In this document: one piece after another, positions 4,676 to 62,398 of the stretch
How positions within the stretch are numbered: the stretch's first letter is position 1
Layout: each line of letters begins with the position of its first letter
Assembly: GCF_036365525.1 (NCBI RefSeq)
Contig: NC_090418.1
Location: 8,846,266 to 8,910,265 of the forward strand
Origin: Heterodontus francisci
Lineage: Eukaryota
Length of the DNA stretch: 64,000 nucleotides
Reading direction: 5' to 3'
Program-made: the position numbers and the translations under genes
Notes under the pieces: model-generated
What the model saw: the letters and a program-made list of their open reading frames with translations, nothing else
Told to the model about the DNA's origin: nothing
Databases searched by the model: none

Positions 4676-6044
4676 TGCTGCAAACAACAGATGCCCCTCT
4701 ACGTTGCTTTCATTGATCTCACCAAAGCCTTTGGCTCGTCAGCAGACGTGGTCTCGTCAGACTACTAGAAAAGATTAGATGCCCACCAAAGCTATGAAGT
4801 ATCATCACCTCATTCCATGACAATATGAAAGGCACAATTCAGCCTCATCAGACCCCTTTCCTATCCTGAGTGTTGTGAAACAGGGCTGTGTTCTCGCACC
4901 TACACTGTTTGGGATTTTCTTCTCCCTGCTGCTCTCACATGCATTCAAGTCTTCAGTAGAAGGAATTTTCCTCCACACAAGATCAGGTGGCAGGTTGTTC
5001 AACCTTGCCCGTCTAAGAGCGAAGACCAAAGTACGGAATGTCCTCATCAGGGAACTCCTCTTTGCTGACGATGCTGCATTAACATCTCACACTGAAGAGT
5101 GTCTGCAGAGACTCATCGACAGGATTGCGGCTGCCTGCACTGAATTTGGCCTAACCACCAGCCTCAAGAAAACGAACATCATGGGACAGGACATCAGTAA
5201 TGCTCCATCCATCAATATTGGCGACCACGCTCTGGAAGTGGTTCAACAGTTCACCTACCTAGGCTCAACTATCACCAGTAACCGGTCTCTCGATGCAGAA
5301 ATCAACAAGCACATGGGAAAGGCTTCCACTGCTATGTCCAGACTGGCCAAGAGAGTGTGGGAAAATGGCGCACTGACACGGAACACAAAAGTCCGAGTGT
5401 ATCAGGCCTGTGTCCTCAGTACCTTGTTCTACGGCAGCGAGGCCTGGACAACGTATGTCAGCCAAGAGCGACGTCTCAATTCATTCCATCTTTGCTGCCT
5501 CTGGAGAAGCCTTGGCATCAGGTGGCGGGATCTCGAGGCAGCCAACATCCCCAGCATATACACACTACTGAGTCAGCAGCGCTTGAGATGGCTTGGCCAT
5601 GTGAGCCACACGGAAGATGGCAGGATCCCCAACGACACATTGTACAGCGAGCTCGCCACTGGTATCAGACCCACCGGCCGTCCATGTCTCCGCTTTAAAG
5701 ACGTCTGCAAACGCGACATGAAGTCCTGTGACATTGATCACAAGTCGTGGGAGTCAGTTGCCAGCGATCGCCAGAGCTGGCGGGCAGCCATAAAGGCAGG
5801 GCTAAAGTGTGACGAGTCGAAGAGACTTAGCAGTTGGCAGGAAAAAAGACAGAAGCGCAAGGGGAGAGCCAACTGTGTAACAGCCCTGACAACCAATTTT
5901 TTCTGCAGCACCTGTGGAAGAGTCTGTTACTCTAATATTGGCCTTTATAGCCACTCCAGGCGCTGCTCCACACACCACTGACCACCTGCAGGCGCTTACC
6001 CATTGTCTCCCGAGACAAGGAGGCCGAAGAAGAAGAAGACGACG
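4676..6044 (+). mobile_element. 5'-truncated RTE-clade (BovB/RTE-like) non-LTR retrotransposon
   Basis: Upstream 'PLYVAFIDLTKAF' motif, RT C-terminal ORF, very short 3'UTR and (GAA)n tail; 8-bp TSD ACTTAGCA at 4668-4675 and 6045-6052. Confidence 0.92.
4875..5981 (+). pseudogene. RTE reverse transcriptase C-terminal ORF (368 aa, truncated, no endonuclease)
   Basis: KQGCVLAPTLF, LLFADD, FTYLGS, RLRWLGHV, GRPCLRFKD and a terminal CxxC...H zinc-finger-like motif. Confidence 0.9.
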
Positions 6045-6714
6045 ACTTAGCACAGTCCCATCCCTCTCTCAAACCCCACATATTGTCAAAATGAAGAAAC
6101 AGCAACCAGCAAGGAAGATTAATCCAGAATACCAGGGCTCGTGACCGGCATGTGGCTCACGGGTAGTAAATATCTGGATACTCCAGATATACTTGCTGAT
6201 CAAGCTCAACAACTTATTGTATAATGTCTACAACAGAGAAGAAATGTCCCAAGGTGCCTCACAGTAGTATGATCAAAAAAATCTTCACATTTAAGGAGAT
6301 ATTAGGGACATGCGACCAAAAGCTCCGTCGAAGAGGTCGGTTTTAAGGAGCGGCTTAAAGGAGGAGAGAGGGAGGCGGAGAGGGTTTAGGGAGGGAATTC
6401 CAGAGCTCGGGGCCCCAGGCAGCTGAAGGCACGGCCGCCAATGGTGGAGCAATTAAAATCGGGGATGCTCAAGAGGCCGGAATTAGACGAGCGCAGATAT
6501 CGGAGGGTTGTGGGGCTGGAGGAGGTTACCGAGATAGAGAGGGGGGCGGGGGGTCGAGGCCATTGGAACAGGACGAGGCCATTCAGCCCCTCAAGCCTGT
6601 TCTGCTATTCAGTTAGATCACGGTTGATCTACACCTCAACTCCATGTACCCAACTTTGCTCCATATCCCTGGACACAACAACAGTCAACAACAACACAGA
6701 TGTGCTCCCAGGGG

Positions 6715-7711
6715 CCCCCCTGTAAATACTGACATACTCCCCGAGACCCCCTGTAAATACTGACACACTACCCGGGGCCCCCCTGTAAATACTGACACAC
6801 TACCCGGGGCCCCCCTGTAAATACTGACACACTCCCGGTGACCCCCCTGTAAATACTGACACACTCCCGGTGACCCCCCTGTAAATACTGACACACTCCC
6901 GGTGACCCCCCCTGTAAATACTGACACACTCCCCGGGAACTCCCCCTGTAAATACTGACACACTCCCGGGGACCCCCTGTAAATACTGACACACTCCCGG
7001 TGACCCCCCTGTAAATACTGACACACTCCCGGTGACCCCCCTGTAAATACTGACACACTCCCGGTGACCCCCCCTGTAAATACTGACACACTCCCCGGGA
7101 ACTCCCCCTGTAAATACTGACACACTCCCGGGGACCCCCTGTAAATACTGACACACTCCCGGTGACCCCCCTGTAAATACTGACACACTCCCCGGGAACT
7201 CCCCCTGTAAATACTGACACACTCCCGGGGACCCCCTGTAAATACTGACACACTCCCGGTGACCCCCCCTGTAAATACTGACACACTCCCGGTGACCCCC
7301 CCTGTAAATACTGACACACTCCCGGTGACCCCCCCTGTAAATACTGACACACTCCCGGTGACCCCCCCTGTAAATACTGACACACTCCCGGTGACCCCCC
7401 CTGTAAATACTGACACACTCCCCGGGAACTCCCCCTGTAAATACTGACACACTCCCGGGGACCCCCTGTAAATACTGACACACTCCCGGTGACCCCCCCT
7501 GTAAATACTGACACACTCCCGGTGACCCCCCCCTGTAAATACTGACACACTCCCGGTGACACCCCCTGTAAATACTGACACACTCCCGGTGACCCCCCTG
7601 TAAATACTGACACACTCCCCGAGACCCCACTGTAAATATTGACACACTCCCGGTGACCCCCCCTGTAAATACTGACACACTCCCGGTGACCCCCCCCTGT
7701 AAATACTGACG
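6715..7711. repeat. Minisatellite, about 31 units of 31-34 bp, consensus (C)n TGTAAATACTGACACACTCCCGGTGAC
   Basis: Tandem array read directly; about 31 TGTAAATA cores counted; variable C-tract; recurring variant units. Confidence 0.98.
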
Positions 7712-9649
7712 TATTCACACATGTCACAACTTGGGAAAGGCTGCAGCAGTTAGAACTTGTCTGATCATTTTCACACGGGATCTGTCACCACACGAATCTG
7801 GGAACCCAGACAGATATTGGATCAGAACCCTTCAGGTGCCCCACCCTCTTACTGTGCAATATTGTTAACGCTCTTTCAGTCGTTAACCTTTAATCTGTTG
7901 CCTCGGCTGCCTTCCTTACTCTCTGCCTTTCCCCTACCCCGGGAGGGTCTCCTCCTGCAGGAGGATAGGATTGCTCAAGGCTACCTCGCCATTCTCAACG
8001 TGCCAGAGGGAGGGAGTGGACGGCCAGCTATTCGACCATGGGAGGAAGACGCCATCGCACCCCCCAACCCCCCGGCCCTGCAAGCACCCCTTCCCACTTT
8101 GGGTTTGGTGTTTAAGGCAAAGCTCTCTCCCTCTCTCTCTGACTGTCTGCAATGGGGATCTGAGCCAATGAACAGAGTTCTGGCTCAGCTGTTCCCTTAA
8201 CAGATCCAGACCCCAAACATCACACTGAAAAGCTGCACAATATTCCCTCCCTCCCTCTATCCTGGGACAATTCCCAAGGGAAAGCATGACCCTTGCGTGC
8301 ACCCATGTTTAAAAAAAAACTAGGACCCAAACATGTCTCTCAGCTCCCTCCTCACACACACCCAATGCAATTTCACCCTTGTCGATTTCTCCCAGTGTTA
8401 GGATCTGACAACTTTACTGAATTACTAAAAGAGATTCCCTTAGGAATCTGGCCTCAAACGAGGGGAGGGGGAGGGGGGGGGGGGGGGAGAAAAACACATT
8501 AAAACCAAGTTGTATCTTACCTCCAACACATCGTTCGAACAAACTTCAAAAGCGATTCACCAAACTTTCCGATCAAATTGGGGAGGATCCAAATATGACC
8601 AGCTCTCCTTCAGACAATACTGCTGGAAGTTTTTTTTGGAGCAAATCGGATGTTGAAGGGAGGGAAATCCTCTCACGAGTAGGCTTGGCTTCTTGTAAAG
8701 GGTTTTTTGTTTCAAAAGTGCTTGCTTGAGATCAGAGAACAGGATTTGCGTTCTGGAGACACGGTCAAAGCGAACTTTGCAGCCCAGTGACTGCTAAACG
8801 AGGCATGTTCCCCTCTCTGATTCAGAAAGGTGTGTTTAAGGAAACGACTGAAGACATATCCTGCACATGTGACCCTCTTTATCACAAAGTCTGCAGTCGT
8901 TTGAGGGTTAAAGGAAATACGTTGGATAAATGGGGACACCTAGGGATTTTAAACGCCTACCCAAATTTATCAGAGGGGGGAGGGGGAGGGGTAAAGGAAG
9001 AGATTTGCACAAAAACGGAATTACAGGGGCGCTGGAGAAGGTGCAAAAAAATATCTGATGGAATGATACTGGATTGAGAGATTGTACCCATCAGGAAAAG
9101 GTTGAGCAGGCTGGGGGCTCTTGAGGACAAGAGAAGGCTGAGGGTGGACCTGATGGAGAGTTTTACATTTATGAAAGGGTTTGATAGATGTAGAGATCTT
9201 TCCACTTGTGTGGGAGAGACCAAAAGCAGGGAGGCACCAATAATAAGATAGATAAACCCAAATGGTAATTCAGCAGAAATTCTTTACCCAGAGAGTGGTG
9301 AGAATGTGGAACTCGCTTGAGGTGAATAGTGTCGATACATTTAAGGAAATGAAGAAGTCAAATTCGATTGTACAGGTCATGATAGGGTTGAGGAAGGAGC
9401 AAGTGCTTTGCGTAAAAGGCGGTGTGTTCTAAGAGGAAGGAAAGACTAGGGGAGGTGCACTCCTGAGGTGAAAGGGAGTAGGAGATGGTATGTTGAGTGC
9501 TGATTTCAACACAGGACCTCGGAAGTGTGGGTGTGTCTGCAAAGGGAGCAGAAGTGGGAAGGAAGTTTCAGGGAAGCAGAGACTGGAGTGGGACTGAGAG
9601 GGAGGTTGGAGGCTAAACGGCGTGTGACGGAATGGATTTTTCGTGGAAT

Positions 9650-36366: not shown

Positions 36367-36442
36367 ATGAGCTCGGTAGCTGTGCTTACACCGGAGAGCT
36401 TTGCTGAGCATCGCAGCGGCTTAGGAGACCAGGAGACCAGAG
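36367..36442 (+). CDS. HDLBP: Vigilin (HDLBP family) coding exon 1
   Basis: MSSVAVLTPESFAEHRSGL matches the vigilin N-terminus; 76 nt; phase-1 donor G|gtcagt. Confidence 0.95.
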
Positions 36443-48211: not shown

Positions 48212-49401
48212 TGAGGTTAAGGGTCACAGCTGCTAGCCTAATGACCAAGCGGTGAGTCTTGGCTCCTCTGCTGCCCTCTCGGTGAGAGGCATGAGCATCC
48301 AGAAATGGAATGTACTTGGATTCTGGGCATCCATGCCCATGCACTTCTGCCTCAGTCTAGATGCCGAGTAAAGCCCCCTCTCAATATGCTGAAATCCCTG
48401 CCTCAGAAAGGTCCCACTCATCCGTTCCCACATCATCCATCCCGTGGCCTCTCTGAGTGATAGTCAATCCCTGTAAAATTAGGGAGCGGTTTTGTGCAGT
48501 TTGGGATCTTTGCCTGATTTCTTTTCTTGCCTCCCTCCCTATACACAGCATGACCTAGAATTTACAGCCCAGAAACAGGCCGTTCAGTCCATCTGCTCCG
48601 TGCTGGTATTTATGCTCCACACGAGCCTCCTCTCATCTCTCTTCATTTCATGCTATCAGCATGTCCTTCTATTCCTTTCTCCCTTGTGTACTTATCTAGC
48701 TTCCACTTAAATGTATCAAGGGCCCCACACTTCTTGATACTGAACTGCTTTTAATGGGAGCTGTCTACAGGCCTCCTGATAGCAGTGATGAAGTAGAAAG
48801 ATGCAGAAATACAGAGATCGGAGAAGCTTGTCTCAAGAGCATATTGGTTATACCACATCTGGAATCCTGGGTACCTCACCTCGGGATGGAAATATTTGCC
48901 TTGGACTGGGTGCAACGCAGATTCACCAGAATGACACTGGGTCTAACAGGGTTAAGTTATGTGGACAGGTTGCACAGTCTAGGCTAGAGAGCAGAAGATT
49001 AAGGGCTGATCTAATCGAGGTGTTTAAGATGATTAAAGAATTTGATAGGGTGGATAGAGTTAAGATAATTGAATGGTGGAACAGGTTCGAGTGGCTGAGG
49101 GCCCGACTCCCATTCCTGTATGAGCCCAGTACAGAAATGACGAGACCAGTTGCTTTGACCCCCTGCTGCTTTTCTGTCCGCTCAGCACTGATGGGGATAG
49201 AGGCTGCGACAATTTGGCCCCGTGCCACTCGCGAGCATCTTTAAACACTCCCTTGATTATATCGTAGCTCTGCTTAGTTAAAAAGAATTTTAAATCCTGA
49301 GCAACATTAGCCATGTAGGGTGGGTGCGTGAGAGGAGAGGGGGGGAGTGAATAAGAAGCTCGTGTGCTCGCCTTAACTAATGATTTCTGCCCTATTACTA
49401 G

Positions 49402-49617
49402 GACAAGCGGGCTGTCGAGAGGATAAACCTGGAGAAAGTCTTCCATCCATTCATTGCTGGGGCTTACAACAAAGTGGTCCAGGAGATAATGCAGGAGACC
49501 GGAGCTCGCATCAACATCCCCCCTCCCAGCATCAACAAGGATGAGATCTTCATCACCGGTGAGAAAGAGCCCGTGGCCCAGGCGGTCACCCGCATCAGGA
49601 AGATCTACGAGGAGAAG
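49402..49617 (+). CDS. HDLBP: Vigilin coding exon 5 (KH domain)
   Basis: DKRAVERINLEKVFHPFIAGAYNKVVQEIMQETGARINIPPPSINKDEIFITGEKEPVAQAVTRIRKIYEEK; actag| and |gttaga; 216 nt. Confidence 0.97.
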
Positions 49618-50277
49618 GTTAGATCAGCGTCCTTGTACTGAAAAGAAACTTGTATTTATGTGCCACGTTAGCCTGTCGTACAGATCTCTCAAAGCTCTCT
49701 CTTCCCCCAGTTAATGCTCTCCCTCAGTTAATATTGCCACTCTCCCTCACCATTCCCTCTCAGTTAGGATTTGTGTGACTATTGTTACGTTTCCAAACAA
49801 TGCAGCCTCAGCAACAACCTACAAACAGCACTGAGATAAATCTCAGCTGTCGTTTCTTAGTTAAGGGTGGGGGGAGGGGGGGGGATTGTTAAACTTGGTA
49901 AACCCACCAAAATATGGATTAACCCATGCCCGTTCACTGCATTGCAGGTGGGACGTTGAATTGGCGCTGCCTGCTGTTTTACAAGATTATTTCGTGCACC
50001 TGGTGCTCCCCACATTGTTCATTAGCTGCATGCAGCAGCAGGGAGCCCAATATTGCACTTGATTATCTCGCTACTGAAAGGCAGCCAGCAGCTCTTAAAG
50101 GGGAGGTGCATTAAAGGGGAGCCAGCTGCATAAAAATTAAGACTTGCACTGTGGCAACAAGAAGTGCTGGGGGTCCTTTGAGAGGTGAATCTATGCCATA
50201 AAGGATTGAAGAATGGCTGAACGTACGAGATGCAATGGAGGCCTTGGTGTAAGATATGGAGAGAAGGAGAGACATCT

Positions 50278-50859
50278 GGGGCACAGTTTTCCCTCCAGGA
50301 GCAGGAAACAGAGGTCAGGAATGTTTCTGGGTCCCGAACACACCCCAAGAGATACAGTCGCCCATCCCAATTTTCACGGGGGGAGTCCCCTTAATTGGCT
50401 TGGAGACGAGCTCCAATGAAGGACAGCGGGCGGCCTCTCGAAGCTGGAGGGCCAATCAGAGGCCTTCTGGCTTGAAAGGAGCATCAGGCTACATTAGAGG
50501 GTAAGTAAGGGAGAGGGCGCTTCAAAATGGAGGCACCCTCTTTCCAACTCTTTTAAACTTTTGTTGACAAGCCACCACTATGGGGGTTGTGGGAGTTCCT
50601 CTACAGGGCAGCACATGGCTGCTGCAACACCCAGGCAGGCAGGGGGGGGGGTGGTATGTCGCCAGGAGGCTGCTTCCAGGCACCTAAACCTGCTCCCGTC
50701 GCCTGTGGGAACCTGGAGGTTGACTGGAAAATCCCACTCGGCCTCCTTTAATTGACCTCAATAGGCTCTTAACGAGCAGCATTGGCTACCCATTGCATGG
50801 GGGCAATTTCCTGCCCATCACCGTTCCCAGCCCTGACGGGAACTCAAAATCTAGCCCCC
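50278..50859. mobile_element. MITE-like insertion splitting the Myb domain
   Basis: Imperfect TIRs GGGGCACAGTTTT / AAAATCTAGCCCC; Myb-like coding resumes on the far side. Confidence 0.6.
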
Positions 50860-51019
50860 ATATCTGCAGGGGTTCAGGAGGCAGTGGGAAGGAATAGCAC
50901 TGGAGCTCAATGCCAGGAGTATAGCTCTAAGAACATGGATGCAGGTCATGAAGAAGTTTTAATGATCTGCCGCGAGTTGTCAGGGTGAGTGAGTTCAGTC
51001 TTCAAATGGCTCACCTTAA

Positions 51020-51470
51020 AGAAAGACTTGCATTTATATAGCATTTTTCACAACTACTGGACGTCTCAAAGTGCTTTTAGAGCCAATGAAGTACTTTTGA
51101 AGTGTAGTCACTGTTGTAATGCAAGAAACACGGCAGCCAAATTGTGCACAGCAAGCTCCCACAAACAGCCATGTGATAATGACGAGATAATCTGTTCGTG
51201 TGATGGTGATTGAGCGAATAATATTGGTCAGAACACTGGGAATAACTTCCTTGCTCCTCTTCAAAATAGTGCTGTGGGATCTTTTTACATCCATCTGAGA
51301 GGGCTGTTGGTTTAACGTCTCAACTGAAAGACAGTACCTCCAACAGAGCAGTACTCCCTCAGTACTGCACTGGAGAGTTAACCTTGATTTTTGTGCTTAA
51401 ATCCTGGAGTGGGATTTGAACCCAGAACCTTATGATTTAGAGGTGAGAGTACTGCCAGCTGAGCCACGAC
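51020..51470 (-). mobile_element. SacSINE1-like SINE, full length, inside the Harbinger intron
   Basis: Complete reverse head, Deu core and tail. Confidence 0.85.
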
Positions 51471-53439
51471 CGACCTCTAAGTTTGTCATAAAATTTTGGC
51501 AATAATTAGTACTGCTTACCAGCTGCACCATTAGCCTCATCCACTTCTCAATTTACTACTAGTGACGTCATCGTCACTCGCAACCCTGCTACCAACAATA
51601 TCAATCAGTACTCAACCCTTCAGTTCATATGGTTTATCTCACCCTCACATACTTAGCACTGTTGCAAGCCTCACACTCACAGCTCACATGCACCGGCAGC
51701 TATTTAATCATGGCAGCCATATCATCCAAACTTACTGCAGGGCATTCACTGACACACTTCCCTCTTTCTTGCAGGAGAAGGTGGTGTTTAATAGGAGGCA
51801 GCAGGAGCAAACTGGAGGAGGACAAGTGCGCCTGCAAGGTTTAACCACTGTCAAGGAGACAGCCCAGGGAAGGGACGTCGCAGAGGCCATGGACACTGGT
51901 GACGCTGGAGGGATTAAGGATGAAGGTATCTGTGTACTTAATCCTCCTGCTCTCATCCCACTGCTCCCTCATCCCGCAATCTCCTCTGACTCATAATCTG
52001 CAGATGATAGAAGCACACCCTTCTTAACATACCCTTGTCTCTTTTTCATTTCAGTTCCCCAAGAACTGGAATCTTCCCAGTCAGAGGAGGAAGACAAAGA
52101 AGACAGTGAAGATGAAGAGACGTCATCGTCACTCGCAGCCGCCGGCTCAGAGACTGACACTGCGCGTATTTTAGAGGCTTGGCTAGAGGAGGGATCTGCG
52201 TGTGATGAGACACCGGCTGCAAGTGTGCAGGACCCGGGGCGGTGGAAAAGGATGGCACAGGTGGCAGCTCGCCCGAGGTTGAGGTTGAACACTAGTTCTG
52301 CCGCAGAGGAGTCAGATGAGGACTTTGATGGCCCAGGTTACAGGAGAATGCTGATGGGTGTACACAACCAAGTGGCTGGTGCACTGGAAAGTCTGCCAGA
52401 GAGCCTGCGGGCAATGTCAAGGAGCGTGGAGGAGTCTAGCTCCGACTTGGCACGGAGCTTTACGCAGAGCTTGAAGCTCATCCTTTCAAACATGGAACAG
52501 GTGGTTACTTCCATCAGCACACCTATGGATCCCAGCATGATGCAGCGCCTGATGGCCGAAGTCACAGCTTCCATTTCAGCACAGACGGCTTCCGTCAAAG
52601 TTCTCAGTGCTGCAGTCGAAGCTCAGACTGCTGCCTTGCAAGCTCAGACTGCTGCCGTCGTGGCTCTGGATGCCACTGTTCGAAGGGGCTTCCAGGATCT
52701 CACAGCAGTCCAGCAGATCAGCAGGAATGCTGAGGCACAGCCCCGCGAGAGTGGCAGTGGCTCCATAGCACCCGAGCCTCCTGTCCTCTCACAGGCTGAC
52801 AGCATTCCTGCTCCCACCCTCGCCACTCCGCCAGTGCCCCTGTTATTGCCCGTCGGCCACCAAGCCCGGAAAATTGCAGCCGGGCGTTCTAAGCCCAAAG
52901 CTGCGCGAGGTCACCCTCCAAGGACATCCGCAGCCTCCTCATTTGGAGCTCAGTATCTTTCCGACATCCATGCTGCAACCACTGGGGAAGCACCTTATAG
53001 GAGCACTAGGATAGACAAAGGCACATGGAAGACAGAAACCAAGGGAAACACGCAAGGGTGATTAGACTATTTCTGTGTGGATTATTTATTGAGCGAATTG
53101 ATAAAATTGACTTTGAATTTGCATTTTCTGGTGTGTTTTTTTAATTTTGTGTTGTCAGCAGGAGGATGGTGTGATGGTCAGTGACTGAGGAGAAGTAAGA
53201 AGTGTGGGACAGTTGGTGAATGGGGAGGCCTAGGTGAGGTTACGGGTATTGCTTATGAATAATCTGATCACTGGGCAGAAACTGACTTTCTACTTTGTAG
53301 ACTCTCTTCCACTTCCTGCTCCTCACTTCCTAGTTCACTTCCTCCTCCTCATAAGAGCATAAGAAATAGGAGCAGGAGTAGGCCATTCAGCCCCTCGAGC
53401 CTGCTCAGCCATTCTCGAAGATCCTCATAGGTGGGGGCT

Positions 53440-53960
53440 AGGCCTTGTCCCTCCTAATGGCCAGGTTGTGCTGCATGCACCACAAATACCTGTTCAGCTG
53501 AGTACTCCAGGGCTCCTCCAGAAAGGTCCAGGCAGGGGAGGTGTTGCTTGTGGATACCGATGGTTCCTTGTGGCAGCATGGCCCTTGTTATTGGCCTGCT
53601 GTGCACGTGTGCCTGGGTTCCTGGCCGGAGTCATGAGTCATATCATGAGGGGGTAACCCTTGACGCCCAGTTAGCCGACCTTTGACTTGCCATGGTGGGT
53701 CAAATAGAGACAGAACTGACTGCCCGCAGAATGGAATAATCATGAGTGCTGACATAACAGGCATTCGACTACCTGTGGTTGCGAACTGTCTGCATATTGA
53801 GGGAGGGGGATTCCGTTCTGGAGATGAAAATGGCTGAGTGCCGATGAGGAGCAGTGTGGGTGCAGTTAATGGCACCCTGCACCATGGGGAAGCCCGCAAT
53901 CCATGCAGAACCTTGTGCTCGCTCCTCCTGCTTGATTCTGGCAAGGAGGAATGCGATGGA
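53440..53960 (-). pseudogene. HARBI1-like DDE transposase remnant
   Basis: IAGFPMVQGAINCTH (family GAIDCTH), SLNMQ, STHDYSILR, GVKGYPL.I*LMTP (family GDKGYPL..WLMTP), CLDLSGGALEYS, HNLAI; stops and frameshifts. Confidence 0.85.
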
Positions 53961-55594
53961 CGTAGCACACTGATTCTCATCATCACCTCGCTCCTCTTGC
54001 ATGCTACCGATGGTCATTAGACATGCACGCACAAACCCCTTTACCAAGACGGAGTCCTGCGCACCTCCCAGCGCGCACTTTGGGCCCCATCTTCGAGACT
54101 TATTTGGCCATTAAAAAATGGTGCACTGCACCACCCAATTTATCCACCACTTCTTGAAATAGATACTATCTGACCAGGCTAATGTAGGGTCATCAATAGA
54201 GTAGCACCTGTGACAATGCAGCACTCCCTCAGTGTTGCATGTGATGTTGAGTCTAAGCTTGGGTGAGTGGCCAGAACCCGCAGTCTCCTGATCAAGGGGT
54301 GAGAGTGCTAACAGCCAAGGCAAACTGGTGGCAACTAAGTGAAGGGCCAAAAAATGCACATCGTGTCTTGGCCAGGGGCCATTCTCAGCAATCCTGCACC
54401 GCATCACACTGTGGGATGACAATCGTTCACTTCACTTGATAGGTACAGTTTCTAAGTGGCATTTGAGCACTTCTGCCCAGGAAAGGGAGGCCTGGGAAGT
54501 GTGAATGACAACAGGGCTAATGGTTTTAACAGGGCCCTTTCACCTGTTCTAAGGATGACCAAAATAATCTGGCCTCCTAATTGCCTCCACTGACTGGACA
54601 GCAAAACCAATCTGATGAAGGGTTTTGTTAGAGTAAATAAGGAGAAACTGTTCTCACTAACAGGAGGGTCGGTAACCAGGGGACACAACGTTGAAACAAT
54701 TGGCAAAAGAACCAGAGTTGGAGATGAGAATTTTTGTTTTATGCTGTGAGTTGTTACGATCTGCAGTGTACTGCCTGAAAAGGTGGTGGAAGCAGATTCA
54801 ATACAAACTTTTAAAAAGGAATTGAATAAGTTCTTGAAAGGGAGAAATTTGCACGGCTATTAGGAAAGAGCAGGGGGGGAGTGCAACTAATTGGATAGCT
54901 CTTTCAAAGAGCCACCACAGACACAATGGGCCGAATGGCCTCCTTCTGTGCTTTTAGATTCTATGATTCTAAATCCAATCATGCCCTCGCCCAACTTTCC
55001 CACACAAACACACACACACATTTCGGGCAGCTGGAACTGAAACGCTAGATTTCCCACCCTCCTTATTTGGTGCGCAGTTTAGAATGTCCTTGGTTTGTCT
55101 GGGGCAATGAGGTGCACTGGAGCCCATGGATAACCTCATGCTGCATCTGCAATGCACAAATAGTTTTATAAAAACACCGCACGGCCGTGGAGAGTGTGAC
55201 CAGTGTAAATATTAGACACAGGAGCGGCTTGTAACTATGCACTGTTTGCTTTGGGAACAGGAGTAGGCCATTCAGCCCCTCAAGCCTGATCCATCAGTCA
55301 GTTAGCTAGTTGGATAACTCCACCTGCCCGCCTGGATTCTGTTACCCTTGCCTAACAAAAGTCTATCAATCACAGTTTTGACATTTTCAATTGATCCTCA
55401 GTTTCAACAGCTCTTTGGGGGAGAGAGTTCCAGATTTTCACTACCCCATGTGTGAAGAAGTGCTTCCTGATAACATCCCTTGAAATGGCATTGTTCTGGG
55501 GACGGTCCTTTGAAGGGCCATTCCCTTGTTCTGTACTCTCCCACCAGATGAAATAGTTTCTCTATGTCTAACATGGAACAGAGAAGGAAAAGAA

Positions 55595-62191: not shown

Positions 62192-62398
62192 AAACGGAAA
62201 ACTACTACAATATCGGTCGAAGTGAAGAAGTCTCAGCACAAGTACATCATAGGCCCAAAAGGTAACACCCTGCAGGAAATACTGGACTTGACCGGGGTAT
62301 CCGTGGAAATGCCATCACTGGAGAGCAGTTCTGAGACCATCATTCTCCGAGGGGAACCTGACAGACTCGGCCCAGCTCTGACTCAGGTCTATGCCAAG
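62192..62398 (+). CDS. HDLBP: Vigilin coding exon 6 (KH domain)
   Basis: KRKTTTISVEVKKSQHKYIIGPKGNTLQEILDLTGVSVEMP...LRGEPDRLGPALTQVYAK; aacag| and |gtaaac; 207 nt. Confidence 0.97.

Follow-up and report, generated by a model that had tools for sequence, protein, structure and literature searches.

In the CSB-PGBD3 fusion, a piggyBac element lodged in intron 5 of ERCC6 acts as an exon trap, and alternative splicing joins host exons 1-5 in frame to a terminal exon that the transposon provides (PMC2268245). Host-transposase fusions of the KRABINER type likewise use the element's own splice acceptor, depend on alternative splicing and have arisen recurrently; the survey describing them covered tetrapods and required a transposase Pfam domain, and its main text does not contain the words 'Harbinger', 'shark' or 'Myb' (10.1101/2020.05.07.082677). 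Harbinger elements have been domesticated in another manner. Their second, Myb-like open reading frame is the source of NAIF1 and MSANTD1-4, stand-alone genes built on the Myb domain, and neither 'fusion' nor 'shark' occurs in the text of the corresponding study (PMC9392472). As for the host considered here, human vigilin (HDLBP) binds RNA in a multivalent fashion, its KH5-9 fragment binding like the full-length protein and its KH0-4 fragment having no high-affinity substrate (PMC9117268). In the literature that we searched, which includes few subscription journals, no paper was found pairing vigilin with Harbinger.

We analysed a window of 64,000 nucleotides from the horn shark, Heterodontus francisci, in which an old transposon copy lies within a vigilin-like gene. 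Exons 2 and 3 of a Harbinger accessory gene were probably captured by this host once, before the galeomorph orders split, and would have been kept since then as a predicted self-associating module; that the capture is both ancient and selected is the explanation we favour, with good though not full confidence. The likeness to CSB-PGBD3 extends to a DNA transposon placed as an exon trap in a host intron, to alternative splicing, to host exons 1-5 in frame, and, in the horn shark, to a terminal exon as the likely form. By contrast, CSB-PGBD3 captures a whole transposase, whereas the vigilin case involves the C-terminal half of an accessory gene, from which the DNA-binding domain is missing; the transposase no longer works, the host protein binds RNA, and in carpet sharks the exons serve as an internal cassette. 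Furthermore, the CSB-PGBD3 protein has been demonstrated, while the vigilin fusion is known from gene models. The features on which the argument is built are the following, in window coordinates.

49402..49617, plus strand: vigilin-like exon 5, with a KH domain and a phase-0 donor, upstream partner of the capture
49880..54150, no strand assigned: old PIF/Harbinger copy in vigilin intron 5, collinear with sibling copies, ends approximate and inverted repeats degenerate
50190..50984, plus strand: broken Myb/SANT exon 1 of the element, start approximate, split by an insert
50279..50860, no strand assigned: MITE-like insert of about 580 bp with short inverted ends, within Myb exon 1, recognised as a homology gap against siblings
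51018..51466, plus strand: SINE-like repeat in the element's intron 1, with many 70-84% copies within the window
51775..51925, plus strand: captured exon, the element's exon 2, from phase 0 to phase 1, holding Met 51889 of a 347-aa model
52055..53061, plus strand: captured exon, the element's exon 3, with an acidic stretch, two long helices, a Pro-rich tail and the stop
52330..52734, plus strand: helical segment under constraint (105-165 and 172-239 in the numbering of the 347-aa model), whose second helix is a predicted self-associating coiled coil
52744..52752, plus strand: place where carpet-shark models leave the element for exon 6; here CGC/GAGAGT, with no GT donor
53100..53105, plus strand: GATAAA, which may serve the element's own gene as a variant poly(A) signal; a T/G-rich tract comes after it
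53423..54073, minus strand: remains of a broken transposase, in convergent orientation with the Myb-like gene and collinear with siblings
62192..62398, plus strand: vigilin-like exon 6 (KRKTTT...), opening on a phase-0 acceptor; the exon to which the cassette form returns

The captured exons sit in the 12.6-kb intron 5 of a gene whose other exons were placed at 36367, 37808, 44380, 46208, 62192 and 63886, and the orthologue of this host locus is labelled 'vigilin-like'. Exon 5 ends AAG/gttaga in phase 0, as does the acceptor at 51775 (ttcttgcag/GAGAAG). The first captured exon closes on AAG/gtatct at 51925, the second opens on tttcag/TTCCCC at 52055, and the two, once spliced, make 1158 nt, with 385 stop-free codons and a stop at 53059-53061. 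A preliminary description, made from the letters of the sequence, had proposed these splice sites and a frame of about 385 residues in phase with exon 5, and both proved exact on re-inspection. It had also counted 288 vigilin residues upstream of 49617, a number borne out by the orthologous protein, where the insert begins at residue 289, and by the exon sizes, which add to 864 nt up to exon 5 when the 46208 acceptor is used. The lesions it had seen in exon 1 and in the transposase of the same element are likewise real: exon 1 contains stops and is interrupted by the insert of about 580 bp, and what is left of the transposase has been frameshifted and has lost internal sequence. Two further loci match vigilin exon 5, C11:21277496 (74%) and C330:56903 (64%), and the latter, inside a 312-aa open frame, may be a retrocopy.

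The source element is a PIF/Harbinger transposon, and the captured piece corresponds to exons 2-3 of its accessory Myb-like gene. Siblings carry DDE_Tnp_4 on the opposite strand with the Myb-like exon upstream, the two-gene layout described for Harbinger (PMC9179366). This domain reaches 31.3 and 30.3 bits in siblings L012 and L024 (cut-off 24.8) and stays below the cut-off in L004; a Pfam scan of the window remnant gave no match, and the remnant is collinear with the siblings bearing the domain. Myb_DNA-bind_5 appears at E 0.23 in the window copy and at 7e-4 to 0.08 in siblings, below the cut-off, and its cut-off is passed by full-length protein relatives (7 of the 25 proteins scanned). PIF/Harbinger elements produce a 3-bp target duplication, TWA; in the window the ends of the element are heavily decayed and its inverted repeats degenerate. 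Among 21 stretches examined for such repeats, two (L044 and L056) have perfect inverted ends, of 15 and 14 bp. Because the best other copies are 69-74% identical, an active transposon was rejected. The siblings also tell where the splice sites come from. An AG stands at the equivalent of the 51775 acceptor in 23 of 26 siblings and at that of 52055 in 26 of 27, and GTATCT is their commonest donor at the end of exon 2 (13/27), so that the sites are the element's own and the acceptor existed before the capture, as in host-transposase fusions. The captured part, however, is not a transposase domain: it is a piece of the accessory gene, the transposase lying broken on the other strand. Since it has no significant Pfam match at the cut-off, a screen keyed to transposase domains would miss it. 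It also departs from NAIF1 and the MSANTD genes in that the Myb exon has been destroyed and the rest grafted into a host; an intact Myb/SANT domain is absent from all five inserts discussed below. The unusual aspect of the locus is precisely that the non-DNA-binding half of an accessory gene was taken into an RNA-binding protein. Elsewhere in the window, a 386-aa reverse transcriptase frame (RVT_1) occupies 4821-5981 on the plus strand, and a repetitive stretch at 6685-7784 on the minus strand has three frames open for 300-350 codons.

Decay of the family provides a yardstick for the open frame. Counted over 51775-53040 (375 codons), with the column majority of 29 siblings as reference, the window copy has neither stop nor frameshift, while the siblings accumulate 107 stops and 178 frameshifts, that is 285 lesions in 10,098 codons, with 5-15 each and none lesion-free. 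The window copy would be expected to carry 10.6, giving a Poisson probability of 2.5e-5 for none at all (4.9e-4 for the part up to 52748, 0.05 for the tail alone). All four of its indels keep the frame, as do 52 of the 230 counted in siblings, and a 1-nt insertion at 53046, beyond the counted range, changes the last few codons only. The preliminary description had suggested measuring dN/dS against the family consensus, and the neutral value that it would have taken as refutation is nearly reached by the frame as a whole. Against the family majority the whole frame is near neutral, at 0.70 (sibling median 0.79, range 0.59-1.13), exon 2, the acidic part and the tail having 0.73, 1.05 and 0.86; the helical part is lower, at 0.45, below all 29 siblings (0.48-1.12). 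Changes are also rarer in the helix than in the N-terminal part in the four inserts tested (odds ratio 0.35-0.46, p 0.005 to 6e-5), among which the carpet sharks are not independent of each other; the same ratio spans 0.49-1.51 in 27 siblings. Conservation concerns the frame and the helical part rather than the sequence as a whole. Other copies of the family are open as well: L057, L058, L059, L060 and five more have stop-free exon-3-like frames of about 170-325 residues (43-52% identity), with no element exon 2 recognised in the four named ones, and they are either further captures or lucky copies. Near-identical copies that share the same 1-3 stops also occur on C28 and on unplaced contigs, many of them small, which suggests a copy caught in tandem or segmental amplification.

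The stronger argument comes from other sharks. In Hemiscyllium ocellatum, the gene model of vigilin-like isoform X1 (XP_060710802, 1526 aa) reads IYEEK, then 266 residues matching both captured exons, then the KRKTTT of exon 6. The Chiloscyllium punctatum model, isoform X3 (XP_072447485), has a 275-aa insert with the same placement, so that in both species the insert is internal and in frame between vigilin exons 5 and 6. Compared with ordinary vigilin/HDLBP, some 270 aa are added after the second GxxG-type motif of a protein which, in Hemiscyllium, shows 14 KH_1 stretches. A Rhincodon model, g46248.t1, joins exon 5 to the insert and exits at the same EAPPW into unrelated sequence, and a partial model of Scyliorhinus torazame, GCB81243, starts at the same Met as the 347-aa horn shark model and passes from the N-terminal part of the insert to exon 6; these two depart from the other models at their ends. 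The evidence of fusion consists of gene models throughout: the captured piece is in frame with host domains in the models of related sharks, and the phases are compatible in the horn shark. The idea of a vigilin-transposon fusion put forward in the preliminary description gains from the IYEEK-EK.. junction in models of three carpet sharks, and has to give up the view of an exaptation 'in progress', the insert being shared across galeomorph orders. The replacement tail it envisaged does not hold for Hemiscyllium and Chiloscyllium, where the cassette rejoins exon 6 and all KH domains are kept.

That these inserts descend from one event is indicated by their derived residues. The window copy has 22/69, 21/72, 25/72 and 15/33 of them in common with the Hemiscyllium, C. 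punctatum, Rhincodon and Scyliorhinus models, respectively (29-45%), while siblings reach at most 15-19%; a 3-residue deletion is also common to the window copy and the orthologous inserts. In a quick tree one branch (SH-aLRT 98) separates the five inserts from the rest, and the three carpet sharks group with one another. Its rows were projected on the family majority without their insertions, one sibling of less than 200 residues was left out, and the broken siblings have longer branches. Between the window copy and carpet sharks the insert is 63-64% identical, host exons 87-100%. Eleven other relatives of the family, with Heptranchias and Pristiophorus among their sources, share 8-18% of derived residues and were for this reason rejected as orthologues. 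A single insertion preceding the separation of bullhead, carpet and cat sharks would explain these sequences most simply, and is likely. Bullhead sharks have a fossil record of at least 180 Ma (PMC7614348), and the oldest galeomorph fossil is dated to 208.5 Ma (PMC9763247); if the insertion was single and preceded the galeomorph split, the oldest bullhead fossils would make the capture at least 180 Ma old. A recent exaptation was rejected, since orthologues are present in three orders.

The horn shark probably uses the exons differently. Carpet-shark models exit after EAPPW, a point equivalent to 52746 in the window, and one sibling has TGG/GTGAGT there, which places a strong donor one base from the family state. 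The gain of this donor in carpet sharks would be simpler than its loss in horn sharks because the family majority is without it. Beyond the stop there is no AATAAA before 58085, an absence that the preliminary description had counted against the fusion; a candidate GATAAA at 53100 stands where 13 of 22 siblings have TATAAA. This hexamer can act as a poly(A) signal. With no donor at EAPPW and a candidate signal close to the stop, the captured exons most likely end the transcript in this genome. The arrangement would be of the CSB-PGBD3 type, the element supplying the stop (as in the 347-aa model) and, as its only candidate signal, the variant GATAAA, whereas carpet sharks read through to exon 6. 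From the phases of exon 5 and of the acceptor we infer a 49617-51775 junction in the horn shark. As a lead only, seven runs presumed to be RNA, from two organisms, hold 0.19-0.39 of the words of 49380-53200, where about 0.05 would be expected from exon 5 by itself and about 0.35 from exon 5 together with both captured exons.

Other accounts of the horn shark locus have to be weighed against capture by vigilin. The exons might form a stand-alone nested gene of 347 aa, begun at Met 51889 and reached via the broken exon 1, the fusion being lost or rare and the cassette existing only in carpet sharks. The only matching horn shark protein record is indeed XP_067879757.1, a 347-aa 'uncharacterized protein' identical to the open frame from that Met, which uses the 51925-52055 junction and the stop at 53059-53061; the exon 1 donor at 50984 (AGG/GTGAGT) is intact and in phase 0, exon 1 has no in-frame Met after its last stop, and the Scyliorhinus model starts at the same residue. 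Moreover, a search of longer proteins returned a single match, from Hemiscyllium, among 7,992 candidates, with no fused H. francisci protein, and the Hemiscyllium insert retrieved only itself among 6,800 candidates of a clustered set in which members can be hidden. However, the 38 codons that precede Met 51889 are open in the same frame, the junction-proximal residues match those of the carpet-shark fusions, and gene models often detach a weakly covered alternative exon from its host gene. We find the nested gene possible but doubtful, and it is compatible with the preferred explanation as regards age and origin. Distinctly less probable is that the horn shark also makes a shorter, full-length cassette isoform by way of a cryptic phase-0 donor in exon 3, 52500 (CAG/GTGGTT) or 52260 (CAG/GTGGCA). 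On a crude scale these weak sites score 2.0 and 0.3, and seven real donors within the window score 2.2-4.4. It is near the 52260 point that the Scyliorhinus model passes from the element to exon 6, yet either donor would remove the best conserved helix (52531-52734), the NCBI model continues to the stop, and the frame stays open beyond both donors, even if for the tail taken alone this has P 0.05.

Tolerated splicing noise would be an old, low-level exon trap in which selection acts only against frame breaks, truncated vigilin being harmful, and the added protein has no function of its own. This would suit the near-neutral dN/dS of the whole frame and the divergence between Hemiscyllium and Chiloscyllium, where 8 of 266 insert residues differ against 7 of 1260 host residues, with two or more further vigilin-like loci as a possible buffer. 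But a weaker acceptor would have been a simpler remedy, and the acceptor has been kept and is pyrimidine-rich; change is selectively low in the helix; and in the horn shark the exon ends in a stop, so that keeping the frame protects no downstream KH domains. We regard noise as unlikely. Chance alone would mean that a single copy among tens of thousands stayed open by luck and was never spliced to vigilin. That the open frame could be chance was the caveat of the preliminary description, and for this genome taken alone it was well placed. First-look counts of the family gave 9,772 and 63,258 candidates, 9 of 117 other protein matches are stop-free inside and other open frames of the family exist; a probability of 2.5e-5 applied to 10^4 to 6x10^4 candidates would thus allow about one such copy per genome. 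The orthologues speak against it, the same copy being open and joined to vigilin exons in the models of four other species, and luck becomes very improbable. Capture followed by selection is in our judgement the likeliest account.

What the captured module may do is suggested by its predicted structure. The 347-aa model has two long helices (105-165 and 172-239; pLDDT 75-87) within disordered sequence, is of low confidence outside them (mean pLDDT 58.8), and found no match in the PDB at E 0.001 or better in a fold search. A three-copy model of residues 100-245 scores 0.58, the best of three controls 0.00, with heptad-spaced contacts along the second helix; its runs agree in at least 27% of contacts, with pLDDT at least 52. 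The score mark was reached by 21/30 solved pairs and 0/23 single chains from microbes, and by 17/29 pairs and 0/30 single chains from eukaryotes, in a calibration using two copies where the model uses three, the oligomer number being the analyst's choice. Long helices often score as oligomers, and conservation did not separate core from surface (invariant at 12 of 16 core positions against 26 of 38 neighbours in four species, p 0.75). Self-association of the second helix is a prediction, which the model supports, and that oligomerisation is the use of the captured module we put at even odds.

The history that we propose would run as follows. The element inserted into intron 5 in the orientation that gives its Myb-like gene the same strand as the host, as its present position indicates, and its acceptor matched the phase of the exon 5 donor, so that capture needed no new mutation. 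The Myb exon and the transposase then decayed, leaving exons 2-3 in frame. In carpet sharks, a donor at ...EAPPW, predicted from the gene models, would send the transcript on to exon 6, with a vigilin of 1526-1535 aa as product, all KH domains plus about 270 aa. In the horn shark, a transcript entering at 51775 would run to the stop at 53061 and end near 53100-53130, encoding a truncated fusion of 673 aa if it came from exon 5, or 347 aa if it came from the element's exon 1. Finally, and here the chances seem evenly balanced, an acidic disordered spacer followed by a coiled coil may oligomerise the isoform, multiplying RNA-binding valency in the cassette form. KH5-9, through which human vigilin binds RNA, would be retained in a cassette isoform, which might oligomerise as well; a terminal fusion would be left with N-terminal KH domains only.

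Related pieces turn up in other genes, each known from one gene model. In Heptranchias perlo, exon 3 pieces of the same family are joined to a SAMD1 winged-helix protein and stand at the front of a VSIG1-like protein, both being insertions different from that in vigilin. A PML-like RING/B-box protein of Pristiophorus (P0025) ends in a related helical exon, and in an IRF3 model (P0032) a related piece separates the DNA-binding domain from the IRF-3 domain; horn shark IRF3 showed no match to this insert in two loci, which leave a gap of 1.5 kb uncovered. Rays of the genera Hypanus, Mobula and Hemitrygon (the P0018 cluster) have a conserved Myb-plus-helix gene that stands by itself and has several isoforms; it was probably domesticated separately, from a related accessory gene. 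Another Pristiophorus model (P0014) displays three Myb units in tandem and, after them, a single helical segment. We would tentatively suggest, at somewhat less than even odds, that the C-terminal coiled coil of the Harbinger accessory protein is a portable oligomerisation module repeatedly plugged into unrelated shark host proteins, which in vigilin gives a regulated, oligomeric isoform of higher valency, retained over at least 180 million years, in carpet sharks as a cassette and in horn sharks as a terminal exon. If this is true, screens keyed to transposases are blind to the whole class. Vigilin is a highly conserved translation factor, in which an in-frame transposon insert of 270 residues across shark orders was unexpected. 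The case takes transposon exon capture beyond DNA-binding transposase domains, to the half of a Harbinger accessory gene that is uncharacterised and to an RNA-binding host. The same insertion apparently serves one order as a terminal exon and another as an internal cassette, and since the two forms are probably one donor base apart, the steps by which an exon is born may be put to the test in living species.
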